DNA from: an uncultured Planctomycetales bacterium | Lineage (GTDB): Bacteria; Omnitrophota; Gorgyraeia; Gygaellales; Profunditerraquicolaceae | DNA length: 64,000 nucleotides | Direction of reading: 5' to 3' | Assembly: GCA_964427405.1 (NCBI GenBank) | Contig: CAYRUB010000002.1 | Location: 68,741 to 132,740 of the forward strand | In this document: piece after piece, positions 45,731-64,000 of the stretch | Layout of the letters: the number at the start of each line of letters is the position of its first letter | Numbering within the stretch: position 1 is the stretch's first letter | Notes under the pieces: model-generated | Database searches by the model: none | What the model saw: the letters and a program-made list of their open reading frames with translations, nothing else | What the model was told of the DNA's origin: nothing | Made by a program: the position numbers and the translations under genes

Positions 45731-45742
45731 TTAAATCCACAT

Positions 45743-46198: not shown

Positions 46199-46242
46199 CA
46201 TTTTAAAGTGAAAGTGGTATAATTAATAAAAGGAGGGAAGAG

Positions 46243-46581: not shown

Positions 46582-46635
46582 TCTTATTATTAAAAAGCAG
46601 GTAAAAGCCCTCGTTAAAGCCTGGGAGGAAAAGGC

Positions 46636-47019
46636 GTGGTGAAGTTTCTTAAATTGTGGTTTCCTGTTGCTGCCTGGGCTGTTTTTATCTTCTACCTTTC
46701 AGGTATCCCTGATTTAAAGACTGGCCTTGAGTTTGATTTTATTCTAAGAAAAATATCCCACCTTGTTGAATATCTGATCCTTGTTTGGCTTCTATATCGA
46801 GCATTTGCAGGATCATTCGATAATATTAATATTCCGCGTCTTTTTATTTATCCGGCTGCCATATCTTTTCTCTATGCCATATCCGATGAGTTGCATCAAT
46901 CGTTTGTCCCGGGCAGAAACTGTTCCACTCAGGACCTCCTAATTGATGCTCTGGGCATACTTATTTTCTATATTATTAATATTTTTGTATCCCGCAAGAA
47001 AAGGAGAATTATAATTTAA
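46636..47019 (+). CDS. VanZ-like family membrane protein
   Basis: ISDELHQSFVPGRNCSTQDLLIDALGILIFY is VanZ-like. GTG start. Confidence 0.6.
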   Translation: MVKFLKLWFPVAAWAVFIFYLSGIPDLKTGLEFDFILRKISHLVEYLILVWLLYRAFAGSFDNINIPRLFIYPAAISFLYAISDELHQSFVPGRNCSTQDLLIDALGILIFYIINIFVSRKKRRIII

Positions 47020-47023
47020 GCAA

Positions 47024-47218
47024 ATGCCTGGTTATCTCTGTCCTCATTGCAAGCAACCCGTTTATGATGATGAAGCCATATTATGCCTTTATTGTGGAGA
47101 AAACCTTGGCCGCAGCGTAGGTTTTATGGGAAAATTAAGGTACCCTAAACATGCAATAATAACTATAGTTTTGATAATCGGAGTGCTGCTCAGTTTTATA
47201 ATATTGATAATTCAATAG
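47024..47218 (+). CDS. Zinc-ribbon (CPHC...CLYC) single-TM membrane protein
   Basis: N-terminal CxxC-x13-CxxC followed by one C-terminal hydrophobic helix. Confidence 0.45.
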   Translation: MPGYLCPHCKQPVYDDEAILCLYCGENLGRSVGFMGKLRYPKHAIITIVLIIGVLLSFIILIIQ

Positions 47219-47355
47219 TCGGTATTACCGCCCAGCTTATAGAAGCTCCCGAGAAGCTATAAGGTAACCAAAAACTAGTTGATTTTAGGTTGTAATGGCG
47301 GGATAATGAAATAGCCTTATAATTGGTTGGCGACTAAACGCCAAAGGAGAGAGCG

Positions 47356-47847
47356 ATGAAGAAAAAAATAATATTATTATTAAGTGCAGTTATTATGGGT
47401 TTAATCATAGGGTCTTTCTTGGTAAAAGGGAAGGCAAAGGGGGATGGACCGTTTAAGTCATATTACCCGGATGGACAGCTGCGGGAAGTAGGAGCGATTA
47501 AGAGTGGTAAGCTTAATGGGGCATTTAAGTCGTATTATCCAGGTGGCCATCTGAAATTGAAATGGACCTATAGGGATGGCAAGAAAGAGGGCATAGCTAA
47601 ATTTTATTTTGAGAGTGGTAAACTACAAGCGGTAGTAACTTATAAAGGTGATGTGTCAGAAGGAACATCCAAATTTTATTTTGAAAATGGAAAACTGCAG
47701 GCAGAAATGAATTACAAGGATGGTAAGTTGGATGGGGTATCTAAAACATATCGTTCCTCCGGGGAAATCATATATATTGATAATTATGAGAATGGTGAAA
47801 TGAAAATTCGCAAGCCCTTTAACGAGACAGGCAAGCTGGGTGGTTAA
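47356..47847 (+). CDS. MORN-repeat (YwqK-like) protein with N-terminal TM/signal segment
   Basis: About 6 tandem ~23-aa repeats (SYYPDGQL..G....GK..G..K, FYFE(S/N)GKLQ...). Confidence 0.65.
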   Translation: MKKKIILLLSAVIMGLIIGSFLVKGKAKGDGPFKSYYPDGQLREVGAIKSGKLNGAFKSYYPGGHLKLKWTYRDGKKEGIAKFYFESGKLQAVVTYKGDVSEGTSKFYFENGKLQAEMNYKDGKLDGVSKTYRSSGEIIYIDNYENGEMKIRKPFNETGKLGG

Positions 47848-47920
47848 GGAAAATTATTGCAGCATAAAGTCTTTCTATGGATAATCTCTTCATGACTCCA
47901 TTCTTTTGCGAACAATTTTC

Positions 47921-47949
47921 TTGATTTAATTTTTTGTCTAAGTTATACT
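47921..47949 (+). promoter_or_regulatory. Sigma70-like promoter for tRNA-Lys (TTGATT, 17 nt spacer, TATACT)
   Basis: Hexamers read directly from the sequence, about 25 nt upstream of the tRNA start. Confidence 0.4.
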
Positions 47950-47974
47950 CTTTACTACAATAACAAGCAATCAC

Positions 47975-48047
47975 GGGCCATTAGCTCAGCTGGTAGAGCA
48001 GGACACTCTTAATGTCAAGGTCGTAGGTTCGACTCCTACATGGCTCA
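47975..48047 (+). tRNA. tRNA-Lys (CTT)
   Basis: GGGCCATTAGCTCAGCTGGTAGAGCAG...CTCTTAA...GGTTCGACTCC...ATGGCTCA, collinear with E. coli tRNA-Lys. Anticodon loop CTCTTAA. Confidence 0.85.
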
Positions 48048-48117
48048 ATTAAATTACAGGGGTATCCCGGATAAACCCTCCTTGTCTTACGCTTATTAAT
48101 TCCTCTGCCTGCATACA

Positions 48118-50079: not shown

Positions 50080-50092
50080 GGAGCTAAAAACT

Positions 50093-50464
50093 ATGCCAAA
50101 GAAACGAATATTACTTATAGAAGATGAAGTTGATATGGTGTATGCGCTGACTCTTCATCTGGAGGCAATGAATTGTGAAGTTTTAAGTGCTGGCGACGGG
50201 CAAACAGGCTTGGATATGGCGCGTAAAGAAAAGCCGGATTTGATTATACTGGATTTGATGCTTCCCAAAATGGACGGTTATAAGGTTTGCAGAATATTAA
50301 AATTTGATGAAAGATACAAGAAGATACCCATTATTATGTTTACTGCCCGCGCCCAGGATCAGGATAAAAAACTGGGCCAGGAGGTAGGTGCGGATGCTTA
50401 TATCACCAAACCTTTTGATTCCAGGGTGCTTTTGGATAAGATAAGCGCGTTGCTTAAGAAATAA
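50093..50464 (+). CDS. Single-domain response regulator (CheY-like receiver)
   Basis: ILLIEDE...DLIILDLMLPKMDGY (phospho-Asp) ...ITKPF. 123 aa with no output domain. Confidence 0.8.
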   Translation: MPKKRILLIEDEVDMVYALTLHLEAMNCEVLSAGDGQTGLDMARKEKPDLIILDLMLPKMDGYKVCRILKFDERYKKIPIIMFTARAQDQDKKLGQEVGADAYITKPFDSRVLLDKISALLKK

Positions 50465-50883
50465 TGAGTGTTTCTTTCCAGCTTATAGAACATACCGCTG
50501 ATATCGGCATCAGGGTCAAATCACTTTCCTTAGGCGGTTTATTCAAGAAAGCAGGCCTTGCTATAGCCGATCTTTCATTAGAGAGACAAAAAACCCGATA
50601 CCCTGAAAAACACAAGATTGCAATCAAGCAAAAAGCAACTAATCTGGAGGAGCTTTTTGTCAATTGGATAAATGAGCTATTGTCAGTATCCGCAGTAGAA
50701 TCCCTCGCTTTTGAAAATATTCAAATAAATCAGATCAATAAGAATTTTGTGGATGCAGTTGCCGTAGGAAGCGATATAAGAAATTATAAGATCAACACTG
50801 AAATCAAGGCCGCTACCTACCATCAGCTAAAGGTTAAAAAAACCGGGCTCATCTGGCAGGCAGAAGTAATTTTTGATGTGTGA
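50464..50883 (+). CDS. Archease (RtcB activator)
   Basis: FQLIEHTADIGIRVKS is the archease N-terminal signature. 139 aa. Directly precedes rtcB. Confidence 0.8.
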   Translation: MSVSFQLIEHTADIGIRVKSLSLGGLFKKAGLAIADLSLERQKTRYPEKHKIAIKQKATNLEELFVNWINELLSVSAVESLAFENIQINQINKNFVDAVAVGSDIRNYKINTEIKAATYHQLKVKKTGLIWQAEVIFDV

Positions 50884-50886
50884 AAA

Positions 50887-52341
50887 ATGACCGGCAATAT
50901 CCCATTAGAGAAAATTGATGATTATCGCTGGCGCATCCCCCGAAGCTATAAGCCGGGAATGCGCGTGCCCGGTTTAATTTATGCTGATGAGAAGTTATTG
51001 AAAGACATCTATCAGGACAAGGCCCTGGAACAGGTGGCTAATGTGGCTTTTTTGCCGGGGATAGTAGATAATTCTCTAGCTATGCCTGATATCCATTGGG
51101 GCTATGGTTTTCCTATCGGAGGAGTGGCGGCTACAGATATTGAAGAAGGCGGGGTTATTTCACCCGGAGGAGTAGGGTTTGATATAAATTGCGGGGTAAG
51201 ATTATTAAAAACTAATTTAGAATATGATGATCTTAAGAATAAGATTAAGGATTTAATTTATCGTTTATTTTCTGATGTTCCTTCCGGAGTCGGCTCGCAA
51301 GGTGATATAAGAGTCAGCTCTAAAGAAGAAAGAGAAATCTTATTAAAAGGCGCACGTTGGGCAGTGGAAAAGGGATTTGGAACAGAGGATGATCTTGATT
51401 GCACTGAAGAAAATGGAGCTATGCAGGGAGCAGACCCTCAGACAGTATCGGAGCGGGCCCTGCAGCGGGGCAAAACACAGTCTGGCACATTGGGGTCCGG
51501 AAATCATTTCTTAGAAGTTCAGGTAATTGACCAGCTTTATGACCGGGAGGCCTGCGATACTATGGGGCTTAATTTGGGCCAGGTGATGGTTGCGATCCAC
51601 TCCGGCTCCAGGGGCTTAGGTTATCAGATTTGTGAAGATTATTCGCGCGGCATGGTCGCAAGCCTGGGAAAATATAATATAAATGTGCCTGACCGGCAAC
51701 TTGCTTGTGCTCCGGTTACTTCTAATGAAGGTAAGGCGTATCTATCTGCGATGAAATGCGCGGCAAATTATGCCTGGTGCAACCGGCAGTGTTTGATGCA
51801 TTTAACCCGTCAGGTATTTGAGAAGATTTTTGGTTCTTCTTGGCAGAAACTGGGAATGTTTTTAATTTATGATGTTGCTCACAACATTGCCAAAATTGAA
51901 AAACATAAGGTTGGCGGCAAGGAAAAGAATCTCTGTGTACATCGCAAAGGCGCAACCCGGGCCTTTGGCCCTAACCATCCGGTCCTGCCTGAGAAATACA
52001 AGAAAATCGGCCAGCCGGTAATTATTCCTGGGGATATGGGCAGGAATTCGTATCTTTTGGTCGGGACGGAAAAAGCAATGCAGGAGACCTTTGGCAGCGC
52101 CTGCCATGGCGCCGGCCGTCTGAAATCACGTACCGCCGCCTTAAGATCCATTAACCCAGATATATTATTGAAAGAATTAGAATCTAAAGGTATAATAGTA
52201 AAAGCCTCAGGACGTAATACGCTGGTAGAGGAGGCGCCTTCGGTTTATAAAGATGTAAATGACGTGGTGGATGTAGTACATAATGCGGGGATTTCCAAAC
52301 GCGTCTGCAGAATGCGCCCGCTAGGAGTAGTTAAAGGTTAA
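50887..52341 (+). CDS. rtcB: RNA-splicing ligase RtcB (3'-phosphate/5'-OH RNA ligase)
   Basis: HWGYGFPIGGVAA, GSGNHF, and His-rich metal/GMP site (SACHGAGR). Confidence 0.9.
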   Translation: MTGNIPLEKIDDYRWRIPRSYKPGMRVPGLIYADEKLLKDIYQDKALEQVANVAFLPGIVDNSLAMPDIHWGYGFPIGGVAATDIEEGGVISPGGVGFDINCGVRLLKTNLEYDDLKNKIKDLIYRLFSDVPSGVGSQGDIRVSSKEEREILLKGARWAVEKGFGTEDDLDCTEENGAMQGADPQTVSERALQRGKTQSGTLGSGNHFLEVQVIDQLYDREACDTMGLNLGQVMVAIHSGSRGLGYQICEDYSRGMVASLGKYNINVPDRQLACAPVTSNEGKAYLSAMKCAANYAWCNRQCLMHLTRQVFEKIFGSSWQKLGMFLIYDVAHNIAKIEKHKVGGKEKNLCVHRKGATRAFGPNHPVLPEKYKKIGQPVIIPGDMGRNSYLLVGTEKAMQETFGSACHGAGRLKSRTAALRSINPDILLKELESKGIIVKASGRNTLVEEAPSVYKDVNDVVDVVHNAGISKRVCRMRPLGVVKG

Positions 52342-52344
52342 AAA

Positions 52345-53616
52345 ATGCTAGATATAAAATTCATTCGGGAAAATCAAGATTTAGTAAAGCAGGCAATGAA
52401 AGACCGGGCTTTAACGGTAGATATTGATAGCCTTGTTAAGATTGACGATAATCGTCGTAAAGCTTTAAGCGAGTTTGAGGAATTAGCAGCTAAGCGCAAT
52501 AAAGCCAATGATGAAATCAGCGTGTTGTTAAAAGAAAAAAAAGACGCGAAGAGCAAAATATTCTCAATGAAGGATATCTCAAAGCGTATTGGAGAGCTTG
52601 AGCCGCAAATAAAAAAGCAGGAAGTAGAATTAAATAAGCTGCTTCTAAGCATTCCCAATGTTCCGCATGCCTCTTTGCCGGTAGGAGATGCTTCCTGTAA
52701 TAAGGTTGTGCGTAGCTGGGGGGAGCCGAGGAAGTTTGATTTTAAGCCGCTTAGCCATATTGAGCTTTGCCAGGACTTAGATATCGTAGACTTTAACCGG
52801 GCTACTAAAATTACCGGTTCGAATTTTATCCTTTTCAAGGGTTGGGGGGCAAAACTTGAGCGCGCTTTAATTAATTTTATGCTTGATTTGCATACCAGCA
52901 AACATGGTTATACTGAAATATTCCCGCCGTTTCTGGTTAATCGCGCCTCTATGCTTGGCACTGGCCAGCTTCCCAAGTTGGAAGAAGATATGTATAAGCT
53001 TAAAGATGATGATCTTTTTCTTATTCCTACCGCAGAAGTACCGGTTACCAATATTTTCCGTGATGAAATTATAGATGAAGATAAACTGCCTATTTATTAT
53101 ACTGCCTATACAGCTTGTTTTAGGAGAGAGGCAGGCTCGTATGGTAAAGATACCAAAGGTTTGATCCGCGTGCATGAATTTGATAAGGTAGAGATGGTTA
53201 AATTTGTTAAGCCTGAAGACTCTTATGATGAGCTGGAAAAACTGGTAGTTAATGCAGAAGAGGTGTTGCAGCTTTTAGAGCTGCCTTATCGGCTGCTATT
53301 GCTTTCTACGCAAGATATAAGTTTTTCTGCCAGCAAATGCTATGACCTTGAGGCTTATACTGCAGGTGTAGATAAATGGCTTGAAGTATCCAGCTGTAGC
53401 AACTTTGAAAGTTTCCAGGCCCGTCGGGCAAATATAAGGATGCGCCGCAAAGAAAGTAAAAAGATAGATTTTGTGCATACTTTGAACGGTTCAGGTATTG
53501 CTTTAGCGCGCACGGTGGTAGCGATTTTAGAGAATTACCAACAGGAGGACGGCTCGGTTTTAATCCCTAAAGCCCTGCAGCCGTATTTAAATGGCCAAGA
53601 AAGAATTACCCGATAA
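52345..53616 (+). CDS. serS: Seryl-tRNA synthetase
   Basis: [15 protein letters not shown]-terminal coiled-coil arm, class II motifs ([31 protein letters not shown]). Confidence 0.9.
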
Positions 53617-54298
53617 GAAATTACTCAAAGATAGCCCTTTATCAAGGGAACCTGCCGGTATCTCCGGAGATTTCTCCAGCAAGATATCTGGTCTATCCAG
53701 CAAGGCCTTTGGAATAATCAAATTTATTTTAGGTTTAGTTCTTTTGCCGTTTGTTTTCTCGACTGCAGTATCTTTTTTAAATGAGTTTGGCCTGGTGAAC
53801 AGGAATTTACAGACAATATTCTGGAGCGGGGCAATTAGTTTTTTGGTGATCTATCTATTTATTTGGGAACCGGCGTTAATTTACAATAAAGGCCACAAGC
53901 TGCTGGAGATTATGTTTAGTTTCTTTAAGCCCATGGTTAATGTAGCGCCTTTTCTTCTGCCTATATACGTGATCTTAGCATTTATTATTTACGGGTTGTT
54001 GTCGCTGGCAATCAAATCCAGCTGGTTGATTGAATATACGCTTTTTTTGGTTGGTTTTGCCGCTGTTTTACACCTGGTGTTTTCAGCTAAAACCATCCGT
54101 ACTAAGAAGGGTGATTTTTTAAAGGGAAATTACATATTTGGATTTTCCTTTATTTTTATCCTGAACCTTGCTTTGCTTGCCATGGGCTTTAGCCTGATTT
54201 TTAAGGAGTTCTCATTTGTTAATTTCTGCAATATTTCTTTTGGTATAGCCAGTAAAATATTTTACGCTGTTTTTAAACAGCTTTTTATATTTGGTTGA
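53591..54298 (+). CDS. Hypothetical polytopic membrane protein
   Basis: About 6 hydrophobic helices and no recognisable motif. 26-nt overlap with serS, so the start is uncertain. Confidence 0.4.
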
Positions 54299-54322
54299 GA
54301 ATAGGCCATAATCAGGAGAGCT

Positions 54323-54411
54323 GGAGAGGTCGCATAGCTGGTTGATTGCACCGGTCTTGAAAACCGGAAGGGGACTTGTTCCCCTCGCGAGTTCGAATCT
54401 CGCCCTCTCCG
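54323..54411 (+). tRNA. tRNA-Ser (TGA)
   Basis: Acceptor GGAGAGG/CCTCTCC, anticodon stem CCGGT/ACCGG with loop CTTGAAA, long variable arm, T-arm GCGAG-TTCGAAT-CTCGC, discriminator G. Confidence 0.85.
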
Positions 54412-54424
54412 TTTATTTTTTAAT

Positions 54425-55471
54425 ATGATAGGTGCTATGGCAGAGCGGATTAGAAATAGAAGGGCAAAGTTTCCGGAAGGCAAACAAAGATTGTTTATCT
54501 CAAGCGTTAATAAAAAATTAGGCGTGAGCCGGGATAAGCTATCTGAAATTTTCAATATAAACAGGCGTACATTAAGCGATTGGTGCAGAGAGAAATCCTC
54601 TATGAATTATAAGGTTCTTTTAGATTTGCAAACAAATTATAATATATCAATTCCAAAAGAAATCAAGATTTTACCGCAATTTTGGTACGTTAATAGAGCG
54701 GCTAAACTTGGAGCATTGATGCGGAATAAGCTTTATGGAAACTTTGGTACCCCCGAAGGTAGGCGAAAGGGTGGGCTTACTACGATAAGAAAGTTTATGC
54801 ATAGGCCTAAGTTAGCTAAGAAATTGGGGCTAAGAGTTATTAAAGATATAAAACGTCCTAAAAGTGGCTTGCAATTGTCTGAATTTGTAGGTATAGTATT
54901 GGGCGATGGAGGCTTGACAGATTATCAGCTAAGAATTACTTTTAATAGAGACACAGACGCTGAGTATGCGGATTTTGTGAAAGAGTTGATAAAAAAACTT
55001 TTTAAACTAGCGCCAAGAATAATTCACAAAAAGTCGGATAAGGGAAGTGATATTGCGGTTTATAGTAAGAACTTAGTGGAGTTTTTAGAGAGTCGCGGCT
55101 TAAAAAGAGGGAATAAAGTTAGAAATAAAGTAGATATTCCCCGCTGGATAAAGAAAAACAAAAGATTCCAATTGTCTTGTTTGCGCGGCCTGATGGATAC
55201 TGATGGTTCTTGTTATGCCTATTCGCATAACGTCAATAAGAAGAGATATCGTAATGTTGCGCTTTGTTTTACCAATGCTTCGGAAGCTTTATTAAAAAGT
55301 GTTTACCATATCTTTGATAGTGGTGGATATTATCCTCGTATGACCGGCAGGCGGGTTTATGTATACGGAGAAAACGAGATTAATAAATATTTTCAAAAAG
55401 TAGGCTCGCATAATTATAAGTATTTGGAAAATTATAGAAGATTCAGATCTTTGAAAGGTAAAGAAACCTAA
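54425..55471 (+). CDS. Free-standing LAGLIDADG-family homing-endonuclease-like protein (two LAGLIDADG motifs) with N-terminal HTH-like domain
   Basis: Two dodecapeptide motifs, FVGIVLGDGGL and LRGLMDTDGSC, about 100 aa apart, as in single-chain LAGLIDADG enzymes. N-terminal basic/HTH-like region (RRTLSDWCREK). The gene sits between two tRNA-Ser genes. Confidence 0.65.
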   Translation: MIGAMAERIRNRRAKFPEGKQRLFISSVNKKLGVSRDKLSEIFNINRRTLSDWCREKSSMNYKVLLDLQTNYNISIPKEIKILPQFWYVNRAAKLGALMRNKLYGNFGTPEGRRKGGLTTIRKFMHRPKLAKKLGLRVIKDIKRPKSGLQLSEFVGIVLGDGGLTDYQLRITFNRDTDAEYADFVKELIKKLFKLAPRIIHKKSDKGSDIAVYSKNLVEFLESRGLKRGNKVRNKVDIPRWIKKNKRFQLSCLRGLMDTDGSCYAYSHNVNKKRYRNVALCFTNASEALLKSVYHIFDSGGYYPRMTGRRVYVYGENEINKYFQKVGSHNYKYLENYRRFRSLKGKET

Positions 55472-55486
55472 TTTTTGGAGGCGTCG

Positions 55487-55567
55487 CATAGCTGGTTGAG
55501 TGCACCGGTTTCGAAAACCGGAATGGTCGTAAGGCCATCGGAGGTTCGAACCCTCCCGCCTCCGCCA
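55487..55567 (+). tRNA. tRNA-Ser (CGA), CCA encoded
   Basis: Acceptor GGAGGCG/CGCCTCC, anticodon loop TTCGAAA, long variable arm, T-arm GGAGG-TTCGAAC-CCTCC, discriminator G plus CCA. Confidence 0.85.
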
Positions 55568-55626
55568 TAAACATTTTGGTGTGGAACAAATCCTCCCGTT
55601 TCCGATGGAATCTTTTTATGGTGCTA

Positions 55627-55651
55627 CAGGAGGGGCTGTTCCTGATTTTTT
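55627..55651 (+). terminator. Rho-independent terminator after tRNA-Ser(CGA)
   Basis: CAGGA-GGGGCTGT-TCCTG hairpin followed by ATTTTTT. Confidence 0.5.
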
Positions 55652-55677
55652 GAATTATTTGAGGAAGTAGGTAATAT

Positions 55678-56823
55678 TTGGCTTGCTTGAACATTAAGCA
55701 AAAATCCTGTTGTTTGCTCGCACTTTTCTTCCTATCCTTCATTTTTTCTCCCCTATTCGCCCAGGACTTTTCACCCGCGCAAGTAAGAGACATTTCAGAC
55801 CGCGCCTACGAACCGGCAGTGATTGAGCTCTTGGATCAGGCTAAAGAGTCTATTACTATTTCCATGTATAACATCAGCTTGGGCGTAAAGGAAAGGAATC
55901 CGGTAACCTTTCTTCTCCAGGATTTAATGGAAGCCCGCCAACGCGATGTCGCGGTTACATTTTACCTGAACACCAACTTCAGGGAAATTGATAAAGAGCC
56001 CCATCAGCTTATCAGGAGCCCATTCTTTAAGAAATTAGCGGATGCCGGATGCATTTTTCATCTCTTGCCTTCGCGCCTGCGCCTTCACGATAAACTTATC
56101 ATAGTGGATAGCCGTTTCGTGGTTGAGGGAAGCACAAATTGGTCCATCTCTGCCTTAAAGAGCAATCGCGAATCCGCCACACTGATAGATTCCCCTGGAC
56201 TTGCCGGAATAAAGTTATCGCGGCTTAAAGCTCTGCCATTAACCACCAAGCCAAAAGAAAAAGAGCCCCGCAGGGCATTATATCTGGAAACCCTGCCCGA
56301 CAGCATAGTTATCCCCGTGATTCTTCTCCTTGACGAGCGTTATTTTCCCAAAATGTTTACCAGCCAGGATTCCCGCAGTATGGATCTTTATCTACTGCTT
56401 CTATCCCATAGCCAGGTTGAGGGAAAATCAGGTTTCTTCGTTGAGTTGGAGAGTATGGCCCTTAGCCTGAATATGCCTGTTTCCTGGTTTGATTTTGGGC
56501 TTAGGCGCCAGGTAATCAGGAGCCTTAAAAAATTAGAGGATAATTACGGCTTGCTGCGCGTTAAATTTTTCCATAGTAAGGATGCCTGGGTTGAGCTTGT
56601 AAATTTTCCTCAAGAGCCCTTTAGCGCAAATTCTAAACTTATCACTAACCAAAAAATATCTTATCGCCTGAAATTCCTGCTTATGATAAAATCCCTGCTT
56701 GAATCGCAGGGAGAAGATTTGCATTCCATATCCAAACAGGAGATTGCCAGGCGTTTCCATATCCATCCTTGGACTGTAGGCGAAGCCTTCAAAGAGCTAA
56801 AACAATACGAAAAAGGCAGTTAA
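55678..56823 (+). CDS. Secreted phospholipase D-like (single HKD motif, Nuc-like) protein with uncharacterised C-terminal domain
   Basis: Signal peptide LALFFLSFIFSPLFAQD. HKD motif HDKLIIVDSRFVVEGSTNWS (HxKx4Dx6GSxN). About 180-aa C-terminal extension without recognisable motifs. Confidence 0.65.
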   Translation: MACLNIKQKSCCLLALFFLSFIFSPLFAQDFSPAQVRDISDRAYEPAVIELLDQAKESITISMYNISLGVKERNPVTFLLQDLMEARQRDVAVTFYLNTNFREIDKEPHQLIRSPFFKKLADAGCIFHLLPSRLRLHDKLIIVDSRFVVEGSTNWSISALKSNRESATLIDSPGLAGIKLSRLKALPLTTKPKEKEPRRALYLETLPDSIVIPVILLLDERYFPKMFTSQDSRSMDLYLLLLSHSQVEGKSGFFVELESMALSLNMPVSWFDFGLRRQVIRSLKKLEDNYGLLRVKFFHSKDAWVELVNFPQEPFSANSKLITNQKISYRLKFLLMIKSLLESQGEDLHSISKQEIARRFHIHPWTVGEAFKELKQYEKGS

Positions 56824-56886
56824 ATGTAATTCCATTATCTTTTTAGTTAATTTTTGATATAATGGGATTCGCTGTAATAGCCGCAA

Positions 56887-58419
56887 TTATTCTACTAAAT
56901 TTTGGAGAGGTGGCAGAGTGGTCGAATGCGCACGCCTGGAGAGCGTGTGACCCGCAAGGGTTCCAGGGTTCGAATCCCTGCCTCTCCGCCAACAAGGATA
57001 GGGCGCTGCTTCAAACAGGGGACGGAAGGTGCCTTCCGTCGAAAAATTGAGGCGGCGCTCTTTTAAAATAAAGTTCGAACCAATCTTTTCCAGAAATTCT
57101 TTCTGGGATTCTAAATTTCCCTCTTCAATCGCGCAACGGGCTCTATTTAAAGAAGTTACAAGTTCTTTGGCCGGTTCGAACCAATTATTTGCCCCAGCAG
57201 CAAAATCCTGCATAGATTCCTGCAATTCCTTCTTATCGTTAATAAAAGCTTCCTTCTTAGCCTGATATTCTTCAAGCGTCAGAGTGCCTTCAAGGTAAAC
57301 ATCAATAAGCTTATTAATCTTAGTTTCAATCGTCTTAACCTTAACTTCAAGATTTTGCTGCTGGGGCAACGATGATTGGACACCGCTATTTCTGTCTTTT
57401 TCTAACTCTTCTAAAATCTTCTTTGTCCAATCATCGCACAAAGAAACTTTTTGAATGAAGGATTTGATCTGCGCGGCAAGCGCTTCTTCACGCACATACT
57501 TCTGATTGCAATTTGTAAGGCGCTTGGTGCAGCGGTAATAAGTATGTCCTTTTTGGATTTCAGCGGTTATTGACCTTCCGCATTCACCGCAACGCATTAG
57601 CCCCCTGAAAACAAATTTAAATTCTTCTTTCTTGGGCTTGCCGCGCCTAAGCATTACTTCCTGACACTTATCAAAAAGTTTCTTTGTGATAATTGGTTCG
57701 TGTGTACCTTCATACATCTCGCCTTTATAGCGAAATACGCCGTAGTAGAGAGGATTTTGCAGCATAAACTGGTAGTCGCTAACAGATAAAGGCTTATCTT
57801 TTCTGCCGGTCATACCAAGGGTGTTTATCTTACGGCGTATTTCGCTAAGAGGATAAGAGCCCGTTGCGTAGATTTCAAAAGCTTTCCTGATGAAAGGAGC
57901 TTTGCCCTCATCCAAGATAATCGCGCGGGTCTTGCGGTCGTTAAGGTATCCAACAGGCGCCCATTGAGGCCAGATACCTTTGCTTAACTTGAGGCGGATG
58001 CCACGCCTGATATTCTCTGAAAGGGCATCTATATAATACTTACTCTGCCCGAAAGCGATAGAGAGCATAAACTTACCTTGGGCGTTATTATCAAGGCGGT
58101 AGGTAGGAAACTTCAAGTCTTTAATTAAGCCACGATCCAAAAGGTAGATGATGCGCCCGCCGTCTATGGAATTGCGCGCCAATCTATCCGGGTGCCAAGC
58201 CATTATTCCTTCGGCTTCACCTTTTTCGATAGCTTTAATCATATCGTTAAAAAGCAACCGCCCGGGCTCTTTGGCAGTTTTCGCTTCAACTAATTCCTTA
58301 TAAACAAAAAGATTCTCCCGCTTGGCAAAGGCGCGCAATTCCACAAGCTGGGCCTCAATGGATAATATTTGTCTGTCATCATCATCGGTGGACTTTCGGG
58401 CATAGATAAAGTAACGCAT
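56887..58419 (-). CDS. Large serine recombinase (resolvase/invertase N-domain, recombinase domain, zinc ribbon, coiled coil)
   Basis: Catalytic N-terminus MRYFIYARKSTDDDDRQILSIEAQ (the Ser of ARKST), recombinase domain, zinc-ribbon Cys cluster (CGECGRS...YYRC), and coiled coil. The last ~60 codons lie antisense over IR-L and tRNA-Ser(GGA), so the true C-terminus is uncertain. Confidence 0.85.
   Translation of the reverse strand: MRYFIYARKSTDDDDRQILSIEAQLVELRAFAKRENLFVYKELVEAKTAKEPGRLLFNDMIKAIEKGEAEGIMAWHPDRLARNSIDGGRIIYLLDRGLIKDLKFPTYRLDNNAQGKFMLSIAFGQSKYYIDALSENIRRGIRLKLSKGIWPQWAPVGYLNDRKTRAIILDEGKAPFIRKAFEIYATGSYPLSEIRRKINTLGMTGRKDKPLSVSDYQFMLQNPLYYGVFRYKGEMYEGTHEPIITKKLFDKCQEVMLRRGKPKKEEFKFVFRGLMRCGECGRSITAEIQKGHTYYRCTKRLTNCNQKYVREEALAAQIKSFIQKVSLCDDWTKKILEELEKDRNSGVQSSLPQQQNLEVKVKTIETKINKLIDVYLEGTLTLEEYQAKKEAFINDKKELQESMQDFAAGANNWFEPAKELVTSLNRARCAIEEGNLESQKEFLEKIGSNFILKERRLNFSTEGTFRPLFEAAPYPCWRRGRDSNPGTLAGHTLSRRAHSTTLPPLQNLVE
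56904..56991 (+). tRNA. tRNA-Ser (GGA), CCA encoded
   Basis: Acceptor GGAGAGG/CCTCTCC, anticodon stem CACGC/GCGTG with loop CTGGAGA, long variable arm, T-arm CAGGG-TTCGAAT-CCCTG, then G-CCA. Confidence 0.85.
56986..57076. repeat. IR-L: left copy of a perfect 91-bp inverted repeat, beginning inside the CCGCCA 3' end of tRNA-Ser(GGA)
   Basis: Sequence 56986-57076 is the exact reverse complement of 58527-58617 (91/91 by manual alignment). Confidence 0.85.
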
Positions 58420-58526
58420 AGGGCAAAGCTCCTTTCTCCCAAATAGGGAAGAGGGAAATTTAGAATCCGTGCTTTTTATTTTGGGCCTCCATTACCCAAA
58501 ATAAAAAGTACAAAAAGATTGGTGAA

Positions 58527-58617
58527 GAACTTTATTTTAAAAGAGCGCCGCCTCAATTTTTCGACGGAAGGCACCTTCCGTCCCCTGTTTGAAGCAGCGC
58601 CCTATCCTTGTTGGCGG
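58527..58617. repeat. IR-R: right copy of the 91-bp inverted repeat, about 105 nt upstream of the recombinase start
   Basis: Reverse complement of 56986-57076. The outer flank of IR-R continues with GGTGGTTCTTTGATACTGTTCGAAC, a partial tRNA-3'-end-like sequence (GTTCGAA...CACCGCCA) in inverse orientation. Confidence 0.85.
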
Positions 58618-59255
58618 TGGTTCTTTGATACTGTTCGAACGATCTTTGTTTAATCCACCGCGCCTGTCGGCGCTCCCACATCTCCCGTGCACCGTTCCCC
58701 CTCGCTGGGGCTCGGGGTCACTTGGCGGCCGCCTGGGCCGGCGGCCTTCTTGCTAATGCAATGCGTGTGCGGCGCAGCTGGATGCTGCAGCCGGGTGGGG
58801 GCGGCTGCAGCATCCAGCGTCCTCACCGAGCAATTATTATAAGTAAAAACCAAAGTTTATAAGGGTTCGGCCGCTATGCCGCTATTACTTCCTAAAACCT
58901 ACACAAACGCGGCAATGCCGCGCCTCTTGCGTTCAACACTTTAAAGCAGACTGGCAAAATTTTGGTGCGGGCAAAATTTTGCCTGACCTATCCTTTTAGG
59001 CCAAAGCATAGAAGAGAAAGAACATCTACTTGAGCATTTCAATTATAAAGAATATAACAAATAAAATTAAAGATATGATGATCCCAGCTGCAATTTTCTC
59101 TTCATAGAATTTAAAATACCTCTCCATATTATTCTCTCCAAAGAATGGAAATTGGTTTGAAAAGCGCGTTTTTTAGTGGTAGAATACGCCTATTGGTATC
59201 CTTAAATTAGCTATCATTATGTTAATACTATTATAATATATAGTCAAGAGAAAAC

Positions 59256-59453
59256 ATGCTAGCAAAAAGAGTAAAAGAGTTTCGAAAAAAGAAGGGTTGG
59301 ACTCAACAGAAATTAGCTGAGAAAACAGGCCTCTCTTTTAATACGATTACTAAGATTGAGCAAGGGATTGGAGATTCTCCTACTTTGAAAACTTTGATTA
59401 AGTTAGCGGATGCTTTAGGTATCGGTTTAGACGAATTGGCCGGTCGTTCTTAA
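59256..59453 (+). CDS. XRE-family (Cro/C1-type) HTH regulator, possible C-protein of the adjacent RM system
   Basis: The 65-aa product WTQQKLAEKTGLSFNTITKIEQG is the HTH_3 signature. Located about 60 nt upstream of mod. Confidence 0.75.
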   Translation: MLAKRVKEFRKKKGWTQQKLAEKTGLSFNTITKIEQGIGDSPTLKTLIKLADALGIGLDELAGRS

Positions 59454-59525
59454 AGTATAAAAAATAATAGAAACGGTCATATTGCTCGTTACTGGAAACA
59501 ATAAGGAAGATTGAAAGGTAGAAGT

Positions 59526-62063
59526 ATGCCGAGAGGAAAAGCAAAACAGAGCAAAGACATAAAAGTTGAGACATATACGCATAAAGGCAAGAAGCGCAGG
59601 AATAATCCCCACGTTGGCCTTGTCTCAAGCGCAACGGATAAATTAAACGGTCGGACGAAATATAAACACGATCCGTATATAGATCCTTATCTTAGCTGGG
59701 CTGGCAAGGCCGAGGGCATGAGTCTTGAAGTTCAGAATGTTAGTCTCCATATCCATGAGCGCATTGACTCCAAGCGCATCGTCAAAGCTTTTTTAAATAA
59801 AAAAGAACAGAAACAATTTCAGCTCGATTTGTTTGAACAGCCGGACAATGACCCTCCGTTAAACAAGGCCATTGACTTCTATAAACACGAGCAAGATTGG
59901 GCAAACCGACTAATCGCCGGTGATTCACTTTTGGTTATGAATTCTCTCCTCAAGAAAGAAGGAATGGCTGGCAAGGTCCAAATGGTCTACATCGACCCGC
60001 CGTATGGAATTAAATACAATTCCAATTTTCAGCCGTTTGTTGATGACACATCAATGAAGCAAGGCGATAAGGATGGTGATTTAGTTGTTGAGCCTGAAAT
60101 GATTCAGGCATTTAGAGACACATGGGAATTGGGTGTGCATTCATACTTAAACTATCTTCGAGATCGGATTCTATTGGCAAAAGATCTCCTCAGTAAATCT
60201 GGGAGTATTTTTGTTCAAATATCGGAGGAAAATGTTCACAGTGTAAGAGCTATCCTCGATGAATTATTTGGAGTCGAAAACTTTGTCAGCCAAATTAATA
60301 TTAAACGCGCATCGATGATGTTCGCAAAAAAGCTATTAAATAATGCGGTTTATTACGTGATATGGTACGCAAAAAATAAAGAAGAAGTTAGATATCACCA
60401 ATTATTTACCGACAAAGATGAGCAATGGTTTGCGGATTCTGCAGGCGCACATCTTAGGGCGGAAAATCCTGTGAATGGAGAAACCATCTTAGTTCCTGCA
60501 GATATGCGAAAGAATATGAAGGAGTTTAAGATAAAATACCCCGATTGGAAGTTATACAGATTGCTAGGGGTTAATGCTCAAGGTACAGAAAAAAGAGAGC
60601 CATTTGAATTTGATGGAAAAAGTTTTATCCCGCCAAGTGGTACTCAATGGAAATATTCATATGATGGCTTAAATATTCTAAAACAGAAAAACCGTCTTGA
60701 AATTGAGAAGAATAGTTTAGCATGCAAAGTTTATCTCTCAGATTATCCTGTAGAGTCTATAAATAGTTTGTGGGATGGAATTGGTGCGGCTGGGGATAAA
60801 ATTTATGTGGTTCAAACATCTGACGAAATAGTTAAAAGATGTCTTTTGATGACTACCGATCCCGGTGACCTTGTTTTTGATCCTACCTGCGGTTCTGGAA
60901 CAACAGCCTATGTTGCCGAGCAATGGGGACGACGCTGGATCACCTGTGATACTTCACGTGTTGCCGTTACTCTTGCCAAACAAAGATTAATGACTTCGAA
61001 ATATGATTATTACCAGTTAGCACATCCTACCGAGGGCATAAAGAGCGGATTTAAGTATAAAACCGTTCCTCATGTCACGCTTGGTTCAATCGCAAATAAT
61101 GAGCTACCCTCGCAAGAAACTCTCTATGATTCACCGCCTGTTGAGAAAGGCAAAGTACGAGTTACGGGACCATTTACTGTTGAAGCAGTGCCATCGCTTC
61201 GTGTGAAGCCATTTGACGGTAACGAGCCAAAGGTTGAAGCCACAAGCGAACAATTAGCACGCATGGGTGAAACCGGCAAGCAGGTTGAATGGCGTGATGA
61301 ATTAAAAACTACCGGGATTCGTGCGACTGGCGGCAAAGTCATACAATTCTCTCGCCTTGAGCCGATGGTTGCTACGAGATTCTTGCATGCCGAGGGCGAG
61401 ATCCTTGACGCTGGCGGTGAAAATAAACGAGCATATATCAGCTTTGGTTCAGATTTTGGCCCACTCGAGCAGAGGCAAGTTGAAGAAGCTATAAAAGAAG
61501 CGCGTTCTCTAAAAAATAAACCGCACTTTGTAATATTTGCCGCATTTCATTTTGACCCTGAAGCGGCCAAAGACATTGATCAGATAAACTGGCCGGGGGT
61601 AAAGATTCTTAAGGCACAGATGAGTGTTGATCTCTTGACTAAAGATCTACGCAAGAACCGGTCTTCTAGCCACAGCTATTGGCTTATCGGTCAGCCGGAT
61701 GTGGAAGTCACCAAGCATAAAGATGGAAACTACAAGGTAAGAGTAAATGGTTTTGATTATTACAATCCGCTTACTGGCGAAATTGAATCTAAAGGCACTA
61801 AGCACATTGCCATGTGGTTTTTAGATACCGACTATGACGAGAGGAGCCTTTATCCCGATCAGGTCTTTTTCCCTGAGAGCGATTCAAAGCGCGACTGGTC
61901 AAAATTGGCCAAGGCATTGAATGGCGAGGTTAATGAAGACCTTCTGGATAAATTCTCAGGCGTTGAATCTCTGCCATTCGCTGGTGGTGAAAATAAAAAG
62001 ATCGCGGTTAAGATTATCGATAACCGCGGGATTGAAGCCTTTGTAATTAAAAAACTGGATTAA
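59526..62063 (+). CDS. mod: Type III restriction-modification Mod subunit (beta-class N6-adenine DNA methyltransferase), unusually long
   Basis: Motif IV VYIDPPYGIKYN precedes motif I FDPTCGSGTTAYVA (beta-class order). 845-850 aa depending on the start (TTG at 59511 or ATG at 59526). res follows 2 nt later. Confidence 0.8.
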   Translation: MPRGKAKQSKDIKVETYTHKGKKRRNNPHVGLVSSATDKLNGRTKYKHDPYIDPYLSWAGKAEGMSLEVQNVSLHIHERIDSKRIVKAFLNKKEQKQFQLDLFEQPDNDPPLNKAIDFYKHEQDWANRLIAGDSLLVMNSLLKKEGMAGKVQMVYIDPPYGIKYNSNFQPFVDDTSMKQGDKDGDLVVEPEMIQAFRDTWELGVHSYLNYLRDRILLAKDLLSKSGSIFVQISEENVHSVRAILDELFGVENFVSQINIKRASMMFAKKLLNNAVYYVIWYAKNKEEVRYHQLFTDKDEQWFADSAGAHLRAENPVNGETILVPADMRKNMKEFKIKYPDWKLYRLLGVNAQGTEKREPFEFDGKSFIPPSGTQWKYSYDGLNILKQKNRLEIEKNSLACKVYLSDYPVESINSLWDGIGAAGDKIYVVQTSDEIVKRCLLMTTDPGDLVFDPTCGSGTTAYVAEQWGRRWITCDTSRVAVTLAKQRLMTSKYDYYQLAHPTEGIKSGFKYKTVPHVTLGSIANNELPSQETLYDSPPVEKGKVRVTGPFTVEAVPSLRVKPFDGNEPKVEATSEQLARMGETGKQVEWRDELKTTGIRATGGKVIQFSRLEPMVATRFLHAEGEILDAGGENKRAYISFGSDFGPLEQRQVEEAIKEARSLKNKPHFVIFAAFHFDPEAAKDIDQINWPGVKILKAQMSVDLLTKDLRKNRSSSHSYWLIGQPDVEVTKHKDGNYKVRVNGFDYYNPLTGEIESKGTKHIAMWFLDTDYDERSLYPDQVFFPESDSKRDWSKLAKALNGEVNEDLLDKFSGVESLPFAGGENKKIAVKIIDNRGIEAFVIKKLD

Positions 62064-62065
62064 CT

Positions 62066-64000
62066 ATGAGCCAAAAAGGTATTGATCGGTTAATTATAAG
62101 CAGTCCCTATGAAGAGCCCAAAGAGCATTGGCTGTATATTCGGGAAACACAGGAGTTTGTGCTTCAGCCCGGGCGTAGGCAATCTGGATATTGGCGTGCA
62201 ACCGCAAAGACAGCGCAGAACTTTGATGACCCGGGCGAATTTGTTTCGATAGAGTTGGTTAATAAAATTCGGCCAAGGGTCAAACAATGGAAAGAAAGCG
62301 GATATCCGAATGTAACTGGTGTTACGCAAAAACTGCTTCGTTTCTGGAATGACAGCGCCCAACGTAATCAACCTTTCTTTTGGTGCCAGTTAGAAGCGGT
62401 TGAGACGGCCATATGGTTGGCTGAGGCAAGCTCTGCCGAGAAACAAGGTATTGAGATTCCCAATGATGGGAGTGCGTGGGAGCGGCAATGCTTAAAGCTC
62501 GCCACAGGAACAGGAAAAACAGTTGTCATGGCCATGCTTATCGCGTGGCAGGCTTTGAATAAGATTGCAAACCCAAAAGATCAGAGATTTTCAAAGAACG
62601 TCCTTGTCATAGCGCCGGGTTTGACCGTTCGTGATAGATTACAGGTTCTTTTGCCAGAGAATAGCGAGAATTTTTATCAGCTCTTCTCTCTTATGGATTC
62701 AACCATGTGGCAAGAATTACTGCAAGCCAAGATCGTTGTGACCAATTGGCATACTCTGGCACCGATCAATGAGAATTACGGCCCAAAGGTTGTGAAGAAA
62801 GGCCCGGAAAGCGAAGAGGCTTTTTTCCGTAGGGTCATGCCTGACTTTGGAAACGCAGGCAATATTTTGATAATCAACGATGAGGCCCATCATTGTCATC
62901 GTCCATCGGCAGATGAAGACGAAGATGAGAAAGAAAAGGCCACGATTTGGGTGAGCGGTATTGACCGTATTCATACATCTCGGGGCGTTTTGAGGGCTTA
63001 TGATTTATCTGCTACGCCGTTTAAGCCAACGGGAAAAATTAATCAAGGCGAACAGCTTTTCACTTGGATCGTAAGCGATTTTGGGTTGAACGATGCTATT
63101 GAAAGTGGATTAGTAAAAACCCCTAAGGTCGCGGTGCGTGATGATTCCAATCTTGGCCCGGATTTAAAGTCAAAACTCTTTCATATCTACCCGGAAGTGC
63201 GGGAAGATCTCAATCGTAGAGCTGAACCGCACGAGGGCTTGCCTGATTTAGTGAGAAATGCTGTTAATATTTTGGGTGGCGATTGGTTGAAAGAAAAAGA
63301 AAGCTGGGCGAATCAAGAGCAACCTCGAGAAACTCCGCCGGTAATGATTATGATTTGTAATCGCACTGAAACAGCGGCGCGGCTGGAATATTCAATGGTG
63401 AACGGCTACTTTGCGGTTGATGAACTCGGCGAGAAGGACGCGCTGATTCGTATAGACCAAGACGCGCTGGATAAGATTGAATCCGATGAGGCAGAGCGCA
63501 TTAATGCTGATAAGTCTGGTAAGGAATTAGTTGAATCTCAGCGTGAGAAATTTAATACGGTAGGAAAAAAAGGAAAAGCCGGTGAACAGATTCAGTGCGT
63601 AATCGGCGTTAACATGCTCTCCGAAGGTTGGGACGCCCGGACAGTGACGCATATACTCGGGCTCCGTGCGTTTACGAGTCAGCTTTTGTGTGAACAGGTT
63701 ATCGGACGAGGCTTGCGCCGAATTTCATATGACGTGAATCCCGAGACGGGCTTGTATGAATCTGAATATGTCACAGTTTTTGGCGTACCTTTTACTTTCC
63801 TTCCGGCTGAACAACAAGAGGGGCCTCCTCGTGTAGAAAAGCCTAAGATAAAAATTGAGCCAGTTCAAGACCGCAAAGCACAAGAGATTGGTTGGCCGCA
63901 TGTGTTGCGGGTTGAGTATAAACTTAATTATTTTCTTGATTTAGACTGGGAAAAACTTGCGAAGTTAGTGTTATCCGCCGAAGATGCCCCTACTATTGTT
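62066..64000 (+). CDS. res: Type III restriction endonuclease Res subunit (SF2 helicase-nuclease), 3'-truncated by window end
   Basis: Manual translation of the open frame from the ATG at 62066. Walker A LATGTGKT, DEAH box INDEAHH, LSATP, and motif VI QVIGRGLRR. The ORF has no stop within the window, so it is absent from the ORF track. Confidence 0.8.
   Translation, partial: MSQKGIDRLIISSPYEEPKEHWLYIRETQEFVLQPGRRQSGYWRATAKTAQNFDDPGEFVSIELVNKIRPRVKQWKESGYPNVTGVTQKLLRFWNDSAQRNQPFFWCQLEAVETAIWLAEASSAEKQGIEIPNDGSAWERQCLKLATGTGKTVVMAMLIAWQALNKIANPKDQRFSKNVLVIAPGLTVRDRLQVLLPENSENFYQLFSLMDSTMWQELLQAKIVVTNWHTLAPINENYGPKVVKKGPESEEAFFRRVMPDFGNAGNILIINDEAHHCHRPSADEDEDEKEKATIWVSGIDRIHTSRGVLRAYDLSATPFKPTGKINQGEQLFTWIVSDFGLNDAIESGLVKTPKVAVRDDSNLGPDLKSKLFHIYPEVREDLNRRAEPHEGLPDLVRNAVNILGGDWLKEKESWANQEQPRETPPVMIMICNRTETAARLEYSMVNGYFAVDELGEKDALIRIDQDALDKIESDEAERINADKSGKELVESQREKFNTVGKKGKAGEQIQCVIGVNMLSEGWDARTVTHILGLRAFTSQLLCEQVIGRGLRRISYDVNPETGLYESEYVTVFGVPFTFLPAEQQEGPPRVEKPKIKIEPVQDRKAQEIGWPHVLRVEYKLNYFLDLDWEKLAKLVLSAEDAPTIV

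Follow-up and report, generated by a model that had tools for sequence, protein, structure and literature searches.

The DNA stretch analysed here (the window, 64,000 nt of contig CAYRUB010000002.1, the proteins of which find their matches in Omnitrophota) contains an array of three complete tRNA-Ser genes on the plus strand. The first two, tRNA-Ser(UGA) and tRNA-Ser(CGA), are separated by a free-standing gene encoding a LAGLIDADG endonuclease, hereafter the homing endonuclease gene (HEG), which is the main subject of this report. A phospholipase D (PLD) gene separates tRNA-Ser(CGA) from tRNA-Ser(GGA), and an island carrying a large serine recombinase gene follows the array (Table 1). Genes for archease, RtcB, seryl-tRNA synthetase and a 235-aa membrane protein are located upstream. 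The three tRNA genes, originally predicted as TGA, CGA and GGA, were all retrieved by ARAGORN and Rfam (tRNA gathering score, 29) as complete, intron-free genes that match the Rfam model over its full length and have long variable arms (class II). In alignments, the acceptor ends GGAGAGG...CCTCTCC are common to the UGA and GGA genes, as had been noticed before. Rfam found no group I or group II introns in the 50000-64000 interval. Twelve nucleotides separate tRNA-Ser(UGA) from the HEG open reading frame (ORF), and tRNA-Ser(CGA) starts 5 nt past the HEG stop codon.

In its longer reading, the HEG ORF spans positions 54425-55471 and encodes 348 residues; homologues begin at the second ATG, at 54437. 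The 348-aa ORF features the motifs GIVLGDGG and LRGLMDTDGS and matches the Pfam family LAGLIDADG_3 with 26.7 bits, above the cut-off of 22.5. A profile of 86 homologues matches I-Tsp061I (in both halves), the endonuclease domains of VMA inteins and I-DmoI. The catalytic Asp residues of the two motifs, D157 (54905-54907, in LGDGG) and D256 (55202-55204, in LMDTDGS), are invariant in the 86 homologues. The AlphaFold2 (AF2) model (predicted local distance difference test score, pLDDT, 91.7) adopts the tandem alpha-beta-beta-alpha-beta-beta-alpha fold, as evidenced by Foldseek comparisons, in which the last ~200 residues match I-Tsp061I best (E 7e-12; template modelling score, TM, 0.78 on the target), followed by I-DmoI, I-OnuI and I-AniI. 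The free-standing, double-motif LAGLIDADG protein of the original prediction is thus borne out by Pfam, profile searches of the families and fold alike. The helix-turn-helix (HTH)-like domain predicted at the N terminus is supported by profile matches to the XRE-type repressors CylR2, DdrOC and P22 C2 (E 0.003-0.5) and by a helical bundle in the AF2 model, but not by Pfam, as HTH_3 scores 17-19.6 bits, under its cut-off of 23. No dedicated family for the protein was found in NCBIfam, PHROG or PADLOC, and membership of a defence system was discarded, as PADLOC gave no match.

Table 1 Features of the tRNA-Ser array and of adjacent DNA. Coordinates refer to the window; the last row, which has none, is an array of a close relative.
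Feature	Coordinates	Strand	Evidence or remark
Promoter-like site TTTATA-17-CATAAT	54284-54312	+	Consensus scan; just upstream of tRNA-Ser(UGA)
tRNA-Ser(UGA), HEG-linked allele GGAGAGGTCGCATAG...	54322-54412	+	ARAGORN; Rfam tRNA, 57.1 bits
Relic of tRNA-Ser 5' end (acceptor strand and D-arm, GGTGCTATGGCAGAGCGGATTAGAA)	54431-54455	+	Pattern match; alignment
Free-standing LAGLIDADG HEG, 344 aa from conserved start	54437-55471	+	Pfam; profile; AF2
XRE-like HTH domain at N terminus of endonuclease	54512-54652	+	Pfam HTH_3, 19.6 bits (below threshold); profile; AF2
tRNA-Ser(CGA), complete partner tRNA	55477-55567	+	ARAGORN; Rfam tRNA, 55.5 bits
Terminator-like hairpin and T run after tRNA-Ser(CGA)	55627-55654	+	Consensus scan only
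Nuc/NucT-like PLD protein with single HKD motif	55678-56823	+	Pfam PLDc_2, 60 bits; HKD motif; model
Large serine recombinase ORF	56887-58419	-	Pfam
tRNA-Ser(GGA), resident allele, canonical D-arm	56904-56991	+	ARAGORN; Rfam tRNA, 58.5 bits
Strain-specific island	57007-64000	.	Starts 15 nt after tRNA-Ser(GGA); runs off the window
L086-type HEG-less array (UGA-7 nt-CGA), allele GGAGAGTTGGCAGAGCTGG			

On the basis of sequence and model, ORF 54437-55471 is a two-motif monomeric LAGLIDADG endonuclease, the predicted activity of which is site-specific cleavage of a long DNA target. Its ratio of nonsynonymous to synonymous substitution rates (dN/dS), 0.13-0.19, indicates that the gene is kept by purifying selection. 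Introns and inteins are the usual context of such enzymes rather than a strict requirement, and free-standing LAGLIDADG members are known. The ORF described here stands alone, outside any intron or intein.

Relatives were collected in two samples, in which individual loci are denoted by L numbers. One genome per species was scanned, which yielded at least 490 HEG relatives, and the 80 best-scoring loci were used. These are labelled as Omnitrophota, Nitrospirales, many Patescibacteria and a few others; some labels are probably wrong. The second, independent sample consists of 80 metagenome loci anchored on the upstream membrane protein, and is therefore blind to HEG presence. L084, a strain 99.1% identical to the window, was counted as the window's own strain in the locus survey.

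The slot between tRNA-Ser(UGA) and tRNA-Ser(CGA) is polymorphic for HEG presence at one site between conserved genes. Among 50 informative Omnitrophota loci, it is empty in 28 (7-140 nt between the tRNAs), occupied by a HEG in 8 and by other genes in 14. For instance, L097 features the precise empty site relative to L117. In a tree of the flanking membrane protein, the eight HEG-positive loci are dispersed as singletons, and two HEG protein lineages occupy the slot. The L084 and L092 HEG proteins, which belong to different lineages, are only 54% identical, whereas their flanking proteins are 85% identical; the L096 and L113 HEG proteins are 81% identical, and the flanks 69%. Rates of synonymous substitution (dS) are similarly discordant. 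In pairs carrying the same HEG lineage, dS values of the HEG versus the flanking gene are 0.37 versus 1.08, 0.71 versus 1.66 and 0.38 versus 1.87; for L084 and L092, they are 2.17 versus 0.81. Decayed copies were also found, as a remnant by tRNA-Ser(GCT) in L072, absent in the related L035, and as a gene with an in-frame stop in L008. To judge from these comparisons, the HEG comes and goes in the UGA-CGA slot, and has moved between lineages after their divergence.

Alleles of the adjacent tRNA genes vary with the HEG. The UGA allele GGAGAGGTCGCATAG (GTCGCATAG) is present in 6 of the 8 HEG-positive and in 3 of the 42 HEG-less loci (Fisher p 1.3e-4), and the nearest HEG-less relatives carry another UGA allele, GGTGGGGTGGCTGAG. 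When the window is compared with the HEG-less L081, coding flanks show 73-85% DNA identity, but the UGA and CGA tRNA genes only 68%. The left edge of the replaced tract coincides with the stop codon of the upstream membrane protein gene, and the tract includes a spacer, GAATAGGCCATAATCAGGAGAG, which holds the promoter-like site and is common to the HEG-positive window, L096 and L113 and absent in HEG-less neighbours. Downstream of the HEG, the D-arm of the window tRNA-Ser(CGA), GTCGCATAGCTGG, is unlike that of the commonest HEG-less CGA allele, GGAGAGTTGGCAGAG. The latter is found in 23 of 43 HEG-less loci and after none of the six HEGs with a known downstream tRNA-Ser(CGA) in the membrane-anchored sample; in the genome set, it directly follows a single HEG, that of L056, which is of a short, N-terminally truncated type. 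Similarly, GTCGCGTAG is common to the GGA partners of all four GGA-linked HEG copies. The tRNA-Ser(GGA) allele of the window is identical to that of the HEG-less L086-L088. As the tRNA alleles go with the HEG rather than with the flank, the data point to horizontal spread with co-conversion of flanking markers.

The association with tRNA-Ser holds across phyla in the HEG family, which comprises 921 clusters at 50% identity in an exhaustive profile search (E <= 1e-30); with more distant members, 2720 clusters were counted at E <= 1e-10. In 71 of the 80 best-scoring species loci, a same-strand tRNA-Ser gene starts -190 to +38 nt from the HEG stop codon, and in 69 of these 71 within -55 to +38 nt. 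A tRNA-Ser(GGA) gene adjoins the HEG in the other orientation in 4 more loci, bringing the total to 75/80; the remaining five comprise three loci ending at a contig edge and two exceptions. Because all 75 adjoining tRNAs are tRNA-Ser, with any of the four anticodons, adjacency is far beyond chance. In a neighbour-joining tree, HEG protein clades follow partner anticodon and host phylum. A phage-borne family was considered and rejected: 2.9 million viral contigs contained just one true member, and matches in GenBank phages were weak and partial. This single viral-contig member is adjoined downstream by tRNA-Ser(GGA), and generic LAGLIDADG matches in viral contigs have no adjoining tRNA. Full-text literature searches turned up no account of bacterial LAGLIDADG genes associated with tRNA-Ser, and the link is also missing from a 2026 survey of Patescibacteria tRNA introns. 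By these comparisons, the HEG family is apparently a large, undescribed group of selfish endonuclease genes specialised on tRNA-Ser.

The original prediction placed the HEG merely between tRNA genes. This position is correct, but the gene is tied to tRNA-Ser across phyla and, moreover, is preceded by the remains, or stub, of a broken tRNA-Ser gene. The start codon and first six codons (MAERIR) of the window HEG lie within this relic, which aligns to the CGA allele of HEG-less neighbours. A search of the 64-kb window for the corresponding tRNA-Ser 5' pattern, GGNGNNNTGGCNGAGCNGNTTNGAA, returned the relic alone (0.00 matches expected). The first 16 nt of 168 tRNA-Ser genes were used to build a position matrix (cut-off, 12 bits), with which 72 loci were searched for stubs from -70 to +15 nt of the HEG start and outside annotated tRNAs. 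Stubs scoring at least 12 bits were identified in 13 of the 72 loci, compared with 0.002 expected per locus, a background derived from 22 matches in 808 kb. For instance, the L009 stub, GGAGAGGTGGCAGAGCGGTTGG, begins 31 nt before the ATG, and the L010 stub, GGAGAGTTGGCTGAGCC, is directly followed by the ATG; further stubs are present in L020, L051, L053, L058 and L062. The L015 motif is not in frame with the ORF, which marks it as a DNA relic and not a coding constraint.

Stubs span 16-26 tRNA positions and end in the D-arm. The D-arm of the stub is unlike that of the partner tRNA in 10 of the 11 strongest cases, and the stubs of L010 and L007 resemble the common HEG-less allele (both compared by eye). 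Partner D-arms, that of the window included, differ both from the stubs and from the common HEG-less alleles. In most other lineages, a worn stub, GGAG-ATATGGCAGAG, is found, in which positions 1-4 resemble a ribosome-binding site (RBS) and positions 7-15 read ATG GCA GAG, giving the conserved 'MAE' start. Duplication of the full partner tRNA upstream of the HEG was considered and rejected, as local alignment of the 250 upstream nucleotides was significant in L045 only. The stubs, found only with the tRNA-Ser 5' position matrix, derive, as far as alignments tell, from alleles other than the partner. Their extent suggests a target in the D-arm region of tRNA-Ser.

We propose that the family consists of free-standing HEGs that target the D-arm region of tRNA-Ser genes and bring a variant replacement tRNA, cleavage being predicted; we assign this reading a probability of roughly 0.68. 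The enzyme would cut a susceptible tRNA-Ser gene in or near the D-arm, around nt 16-26, and the break would be repaired from a donor composed of a tRNA 5' stub, the HEG and a complete tRNA-Ser with a different D-arm. Because donor repair would bring a complete tRNA-Ser, the recipient would keep a working tRNA without an intron or intein. The 5' stub of the old gene would stay in front of the HEG, neighbouring tRNA alleles would often be co-converted, and the incoming variant D-arm would protect the new locus from further cutting. The stub has apparently been reused as RBS and start codon (GGAG...ATG GCA GAG, hence 'MAE') in several lineages, the window included.

The HEG would probably be transcribed with the tRNAs and be freed by tRNA processing. 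Consensus matches suggest that the promoter-like and terminator-like sequences at 54284-54312 and 55627-55654 would delimit a single tRNA-HEG-tRNA transcript, the hairpin being its possible end. The longer CGA-PLD spacer that holds the hairpin is absent from the HEG-less L081. In the consensus scan, the count of promoter-like sites is not above chance for the region.

Several points weigh against the proposed mechanism. The evidence for both cleavage and target is comparative. From lineage to lineage, the 5' sequences of partner tRNAs vary greatly, so that no single conserved target can be named and each lineage would need its own specificity; a recognition sequence common to all partner tRNAs was sought but, given this diversity, not found. 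As the D-arm of the window tRNA-Ser(GGA) is canonical and close to the stub, the enzyme would need fine discrimination. Most stubs are degenerate, and those of the GGAGATATGGCAGAG type could partly reflect selection for an RBS and a start codon. No stub was evident in the Nitrospirales loci by the position-matrix scan. Nearly all of the best 80 copies are intact, with clades tracking host phyla, which is likewise compatible with a host role and long vertical persistence. Lastly, the sequences compared are metagenome assemblies with taxon labels as deposited, the trees are neighbour-joining trees without support values, and dS is near saturation for some pairs.

A host role is the substance of one competing explanation, in which a domesticated LAGLIDADG/HTH protein, akin to WhiA, would act at tRNA-Ser as a regulator of array transcription or as a guard against integrating elements. 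The large size of the family, mostly intact and under purifying selection, would fit such a role, as would the extra HTH domain and clades that track host phylum and partner anticodon; the stub upstream of the HEG could then act as an operator. We nevertheless regard domestication, which the original prediction had offered as an alternative, as unlikely. The distribution is patchy, the slot being occupied by a HEG in just 8 of 50 close relatives, and lineages 54% identical are found in one slot next to flanking proteins that are 85% identical. HEG dS is discordant with that of the flank, decayed copies exist and, unlike in WhiA, both catalytic Asp residues are invariant. The HEG could also be a passive passenger, collected by tRNA-Ser arrays that act as recombination hot spots, with an activity, if any, aimed elsewhere. 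Unrelated genes do fill the same slots in relatives, and tRNA alleles are reshuffled among HEG-less loci too. However, no other cargo shows cross-phylum, orientation-specific adjacency to tRNA-Ser only, tRNA-Ser stubs at the HEG start and allele co-variation point to a specific relation, and a dN/dS well below 1 needs some selected activity; a passenger is thus about as improbable as a domesticated protein.

Least credible is a role at the RNA level, in which a maturase-like LAGLIDADG protein would bind or process tRNA-Ser precursors through their class II shape and not through DNA sequence. It would explain why the association holds despite very diverse tRNA-Ser primary sequences, and some LAGLIDADG proteins are RNA maturases, bI3 and I-AniI being among the fold matches; the ORF is, moreover, packed between tRNAs and often enters the next one. 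Yet the HEG is patchy in close relatives, 28 empty loci already suggest normal tRNA-Ser maturation without it, no intron or other RNA element was found, DNA-cleavage residues are conserved, and signals of horizontal transfer would be unexpected for a processing factor. We therefore consider an RNA-level role highly improbable.

The proposed homing at tRNA-Ser has partial parallels in known systems. The T4 SegB gene is a free-standing endonuclease gene located in the T4 tRNA cluster, the product of which recognises a conserved tRNA motif, that of the T-loop; it spreads by double-strand-break repair, co-converting neighbouring tRNA genes (PMC2330249). Both SegB and the HEG are free-standing endonuclease genes among tRNA genes that home without an intron, homing being inferred for the HEG. 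However, SegB is a GIY-YIG enzyme of a phage and is not limited to one tRNA amino-acid family, whereas the HEG encodes a LAGLIDADG protein of bacterial chromosomes; an architecture of stub and replacement tRNA is not mentioned in the SegB abstract (PMC2330249). With I-Tsp061I, I-DmoI and VMA intein endonucleases, the HEG protein shares the two-domain fold and acidic residues in both motifs. Enzymes of the I-Tsp061I type, found in archaeal rRNA introns and inteins, have conserved RNA genes as targets, as proposed here. In contrast to these enzymes, the HEG lies in no intron or intein, encodes an extra N-terminal HTH domain of ~140 aa, and would save the host gene by a replacement tRNA and not by splicing.

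WhiA, a domesticated transcription factor of Gram-positive bacteria, is not known to carry catalytic acidic residues in its degenerate motifs, features a C-terminal HTH domain and is vertically inherited. The HEG protein resembles it in combining a LAGLIDADG scaffold with an HTH domain, and the WhiA structure 8dy9 ranks 36th among the fold matches. The HEG protein differs from WhiA in its invariant catalytic Asp residues, N-terminal HTH domain and patchy distribution, and does not qualify as a domesticated regulator of the WhiA type. A likeness to tRNA-targeting integrases can also be drawn, as the element would enter a tRNA gene and bring along a copy of the part that it interrupts, leaving a complete tRNA in place. 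Unlike in integrases that regenerate the tRNA 3' end, it is the 5' end that is duplicated, an endonuclease and host recombination would do the work, and the element is only ~1.1 kb long.

Members of the family vary in form and surroundings. In more than 30 loci, the HEG frame remains open into the partner tRNA for up to ~55 nt (131 nt in L067); examples are L010, L024, L028, L041, L059 and L072. Processing of the tRNA 5' end would remove the HEG stop codon in these run-on loci, which might limit expression or couple it to tRNA processing. A subfamily lacking the first ~80 residues (the HTH domain) is located mostly before tRNA-Ser(GCT) in Omnitrophota (L036, L049, L052, L054, L056, L063, L069, L074, L077, L078 and a second copy in L096). 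In two Omnitrophota loci, L004 (4986-5480) and L009 (7667-8122), a gene for a TadA-like tRNA adenosine deaminase lies between tRNA-Arg(ACG), the usual TadA substrate, and tRNA-Ser(GCT), in a slot that holds a short-form HEG in other relatives. ARAGORN also identified tRNA-Ser genes with the anticodon ACT, unusual for bacteria, in the Patescibacteria-type loci L040 (9418-9502), L043 (891-977) and L073 (5864-5951), two of which directly adjoin a HEG.

The PLD gene in the CGA-GGA slot encodes a protein with a single HKD motif on a Nuc fold. The motif H137-x-K139-x4-D144-x6-G-S152-x-N154 is invariant, and the model is closest to Nuc (1byr; TM 0.74 on the target), with Zucchini and NucT next. In sequence comparisons, the NucT and DrmC families are matched below their cut-offs (42 bits versus 211 for NucT). 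Of the signal-peptide-bearing, single-HKD PLD/Nuc-type protein predicted originally, the motif and the Nuc match hold, and the hydrophobic helix at residues 6-23 is consistent with either a signal peptide or an anchor. The protein shares its fold, full HKD motif and export-type N-terminal helix with Nuc (from a Salmonella plasmid) and NucT (from Helicobacter pylori), but differs from both in an extra C-terminal region of ~190 aa, composed of winged-helix/HTH-like domains, which the original prediction had not included.

More than 560 PLD homologues were found in Omnitrophota. Among 35 informative loci, the CGA-GGA slot contains the PLD gene in three (L084, L095 and L096) and is empty in 19. 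In L081, the PLD gene directly follows tRNA-Ser(CGA), and no GGA tRNA was found before the contig end. A homologue that is 51% identical is surrounded by genes for glycosyltransferases and methyltransferases, in a 13-kb stretch devoid of tRNAs. The notion that HEG and PLD form one element was rejected: the PLD gene occurs without the HEG in L081 and L095, the HEG without the PLD gene in L113, L117, L134 and L151, and PLD family members elsewhere are not beside tRNAs. We regard the PLD gene as a variable insert independent of the HEG, encoding a candidate exported nuclease.

Other cargo in the slots of relatives is unrelated and includes a flavodoxin/4Fe-4S protein, membrane proteins, small GIY-YIG proteins, a toxin-antitoxin pair, a serpin and the PLD gene. 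GIY-YIG-like ORFs of ~90 aa (YVYILEC...GVT...RL.EHN) are located in tRNA-Ser spacers of L109 (6024-6305), L112 (5894-6292), L124 (2781-3155) and L130 (5996-6271), and may represent a second nuclease family at the same hot spot. A nucleotidyltransferase/HEPN pair resembling a toxin-antitoxin system occupies the CGA-GGA slot of L003 (7231-8248), and a pair of the same kind adjoins a PLD homologue in L082 (7378-8359).

The third tRNA gene is the insertion point of the island, as predicted. L084 is 99.1% identical to the window over 8416 nt, without gaps, up to 57006, and then diverges; a hairpin, a gene for a tetratricopeptide repeat (TPR) protein and a sulfatase gene take the place of the recombinase island. 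The recombinase, the ORF of which overlaps the 3' end of tRNA-Ser(GGA), features all three domains of large serine recombinases (Pfam Resolvase, 59.6 bits; Recombinase, 57.2; Zn_ribbon_recom, 40.2). A perfect 91-nt inverted repeat (56986-57076 and 58527-58617) brackets the gene, and a 21-nt inverted repeat (57106-57126 and 58448-58468) is nested within it. The final 6 nt of tRNA-Ser(GGA) are contained in each 91-nt arm, together with 15 nt of host DNA and the recombinase ORF 3' end. Consequently, the segment looks invertible, with a different recombinase C-terminal tail in each orientation. The view of the island as a recent insertion unique to this genome is partly right: it is absent in L084, but at least eight more distant relatives have the recombinase and the repeat after tRNA-Ser(GGA), and the 91-nt repeat is conserved in L130 and L138. 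Comparisons indicate that the recombinase island and the PLD gene are separate variable inserts in the same tRNA-Ser array. With the HEG, three inserts are separately present or absent in relatives, in keeping with the repeated mobile-element traffic originally suggested.

Inside the island, the 59256-62063 interval encodes a 65-aa C-protein-like HTH protein, followed by an 850-aa methyltransferase of a Type III restriction-modification system. Just outside the right repeat arm, the 58618-58860 region has 59% G+C in a 42% G+C background and folds more stably than shuffled sequences on both strands (z -3.2 and -4.4), with a 17-bp perfect hairpin at 58777-58818. Its first part (58618-58650) resembles a degenerate tRNA 3' half. 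The region has no match in Rfam, and part of it is conserved in L100 and L130. On the other side of the array, the gene order tRNA-Arg(UCG), tRNA-Lys(CUU), archease, RtcB, seryl-tRNA synthetase, 235-aa membrane protein and tRNA-Ser array, spanning 45656-54298 in the window, is conserved in Omnitrophota, including L001, L003, L009 and L081. An RNA-repair ligase and a synthetase consequently adjoin the tRNAs charged by that synthetase.

HEGs are thought to survive in essential genes inside introns or inteins, or between genes in phages. Those described here apparently break a tRNA gene and bring a spare. A wider claim, which we advance tentatively and hold at slightly less than even odds, is that the family acts on an essential RNA gene as a natural 'cut and replace' drive, in which a D-arm break is coupled to a cleavage-resistant tRNA-Ser. 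This would be a third way besides introns and inteins and, through rounds of invasion and escape, would drive the unusual D-arm diversity and allele shuffling of tRNA-Ser in Omnitrophota, Patescibacteria and Nitrospirales. As seryl-tRNA synthetase recognises its tRNAs by the long variable arm rather than by anticodon or D-arm, foreign tRNA-Ser bodies would still be correctly charged, which would make tRNA-Ser a tolerant host. If true, the family would be a natural counterpart of engineered cleave-and-rescue gene drives. It would also supply hundreds of diverged LAGLIDADG enzymes, the likely targets of which could be read from adjoining stubs, a resource useful for meganuclease engineering, and would pose a systematic annotation issue, as HEG ORFs often run into the next tRNA gene. 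Such a drive would explain why tRNA-Ser genes of these phyla vary so much and are so often interrupted by extra genes.

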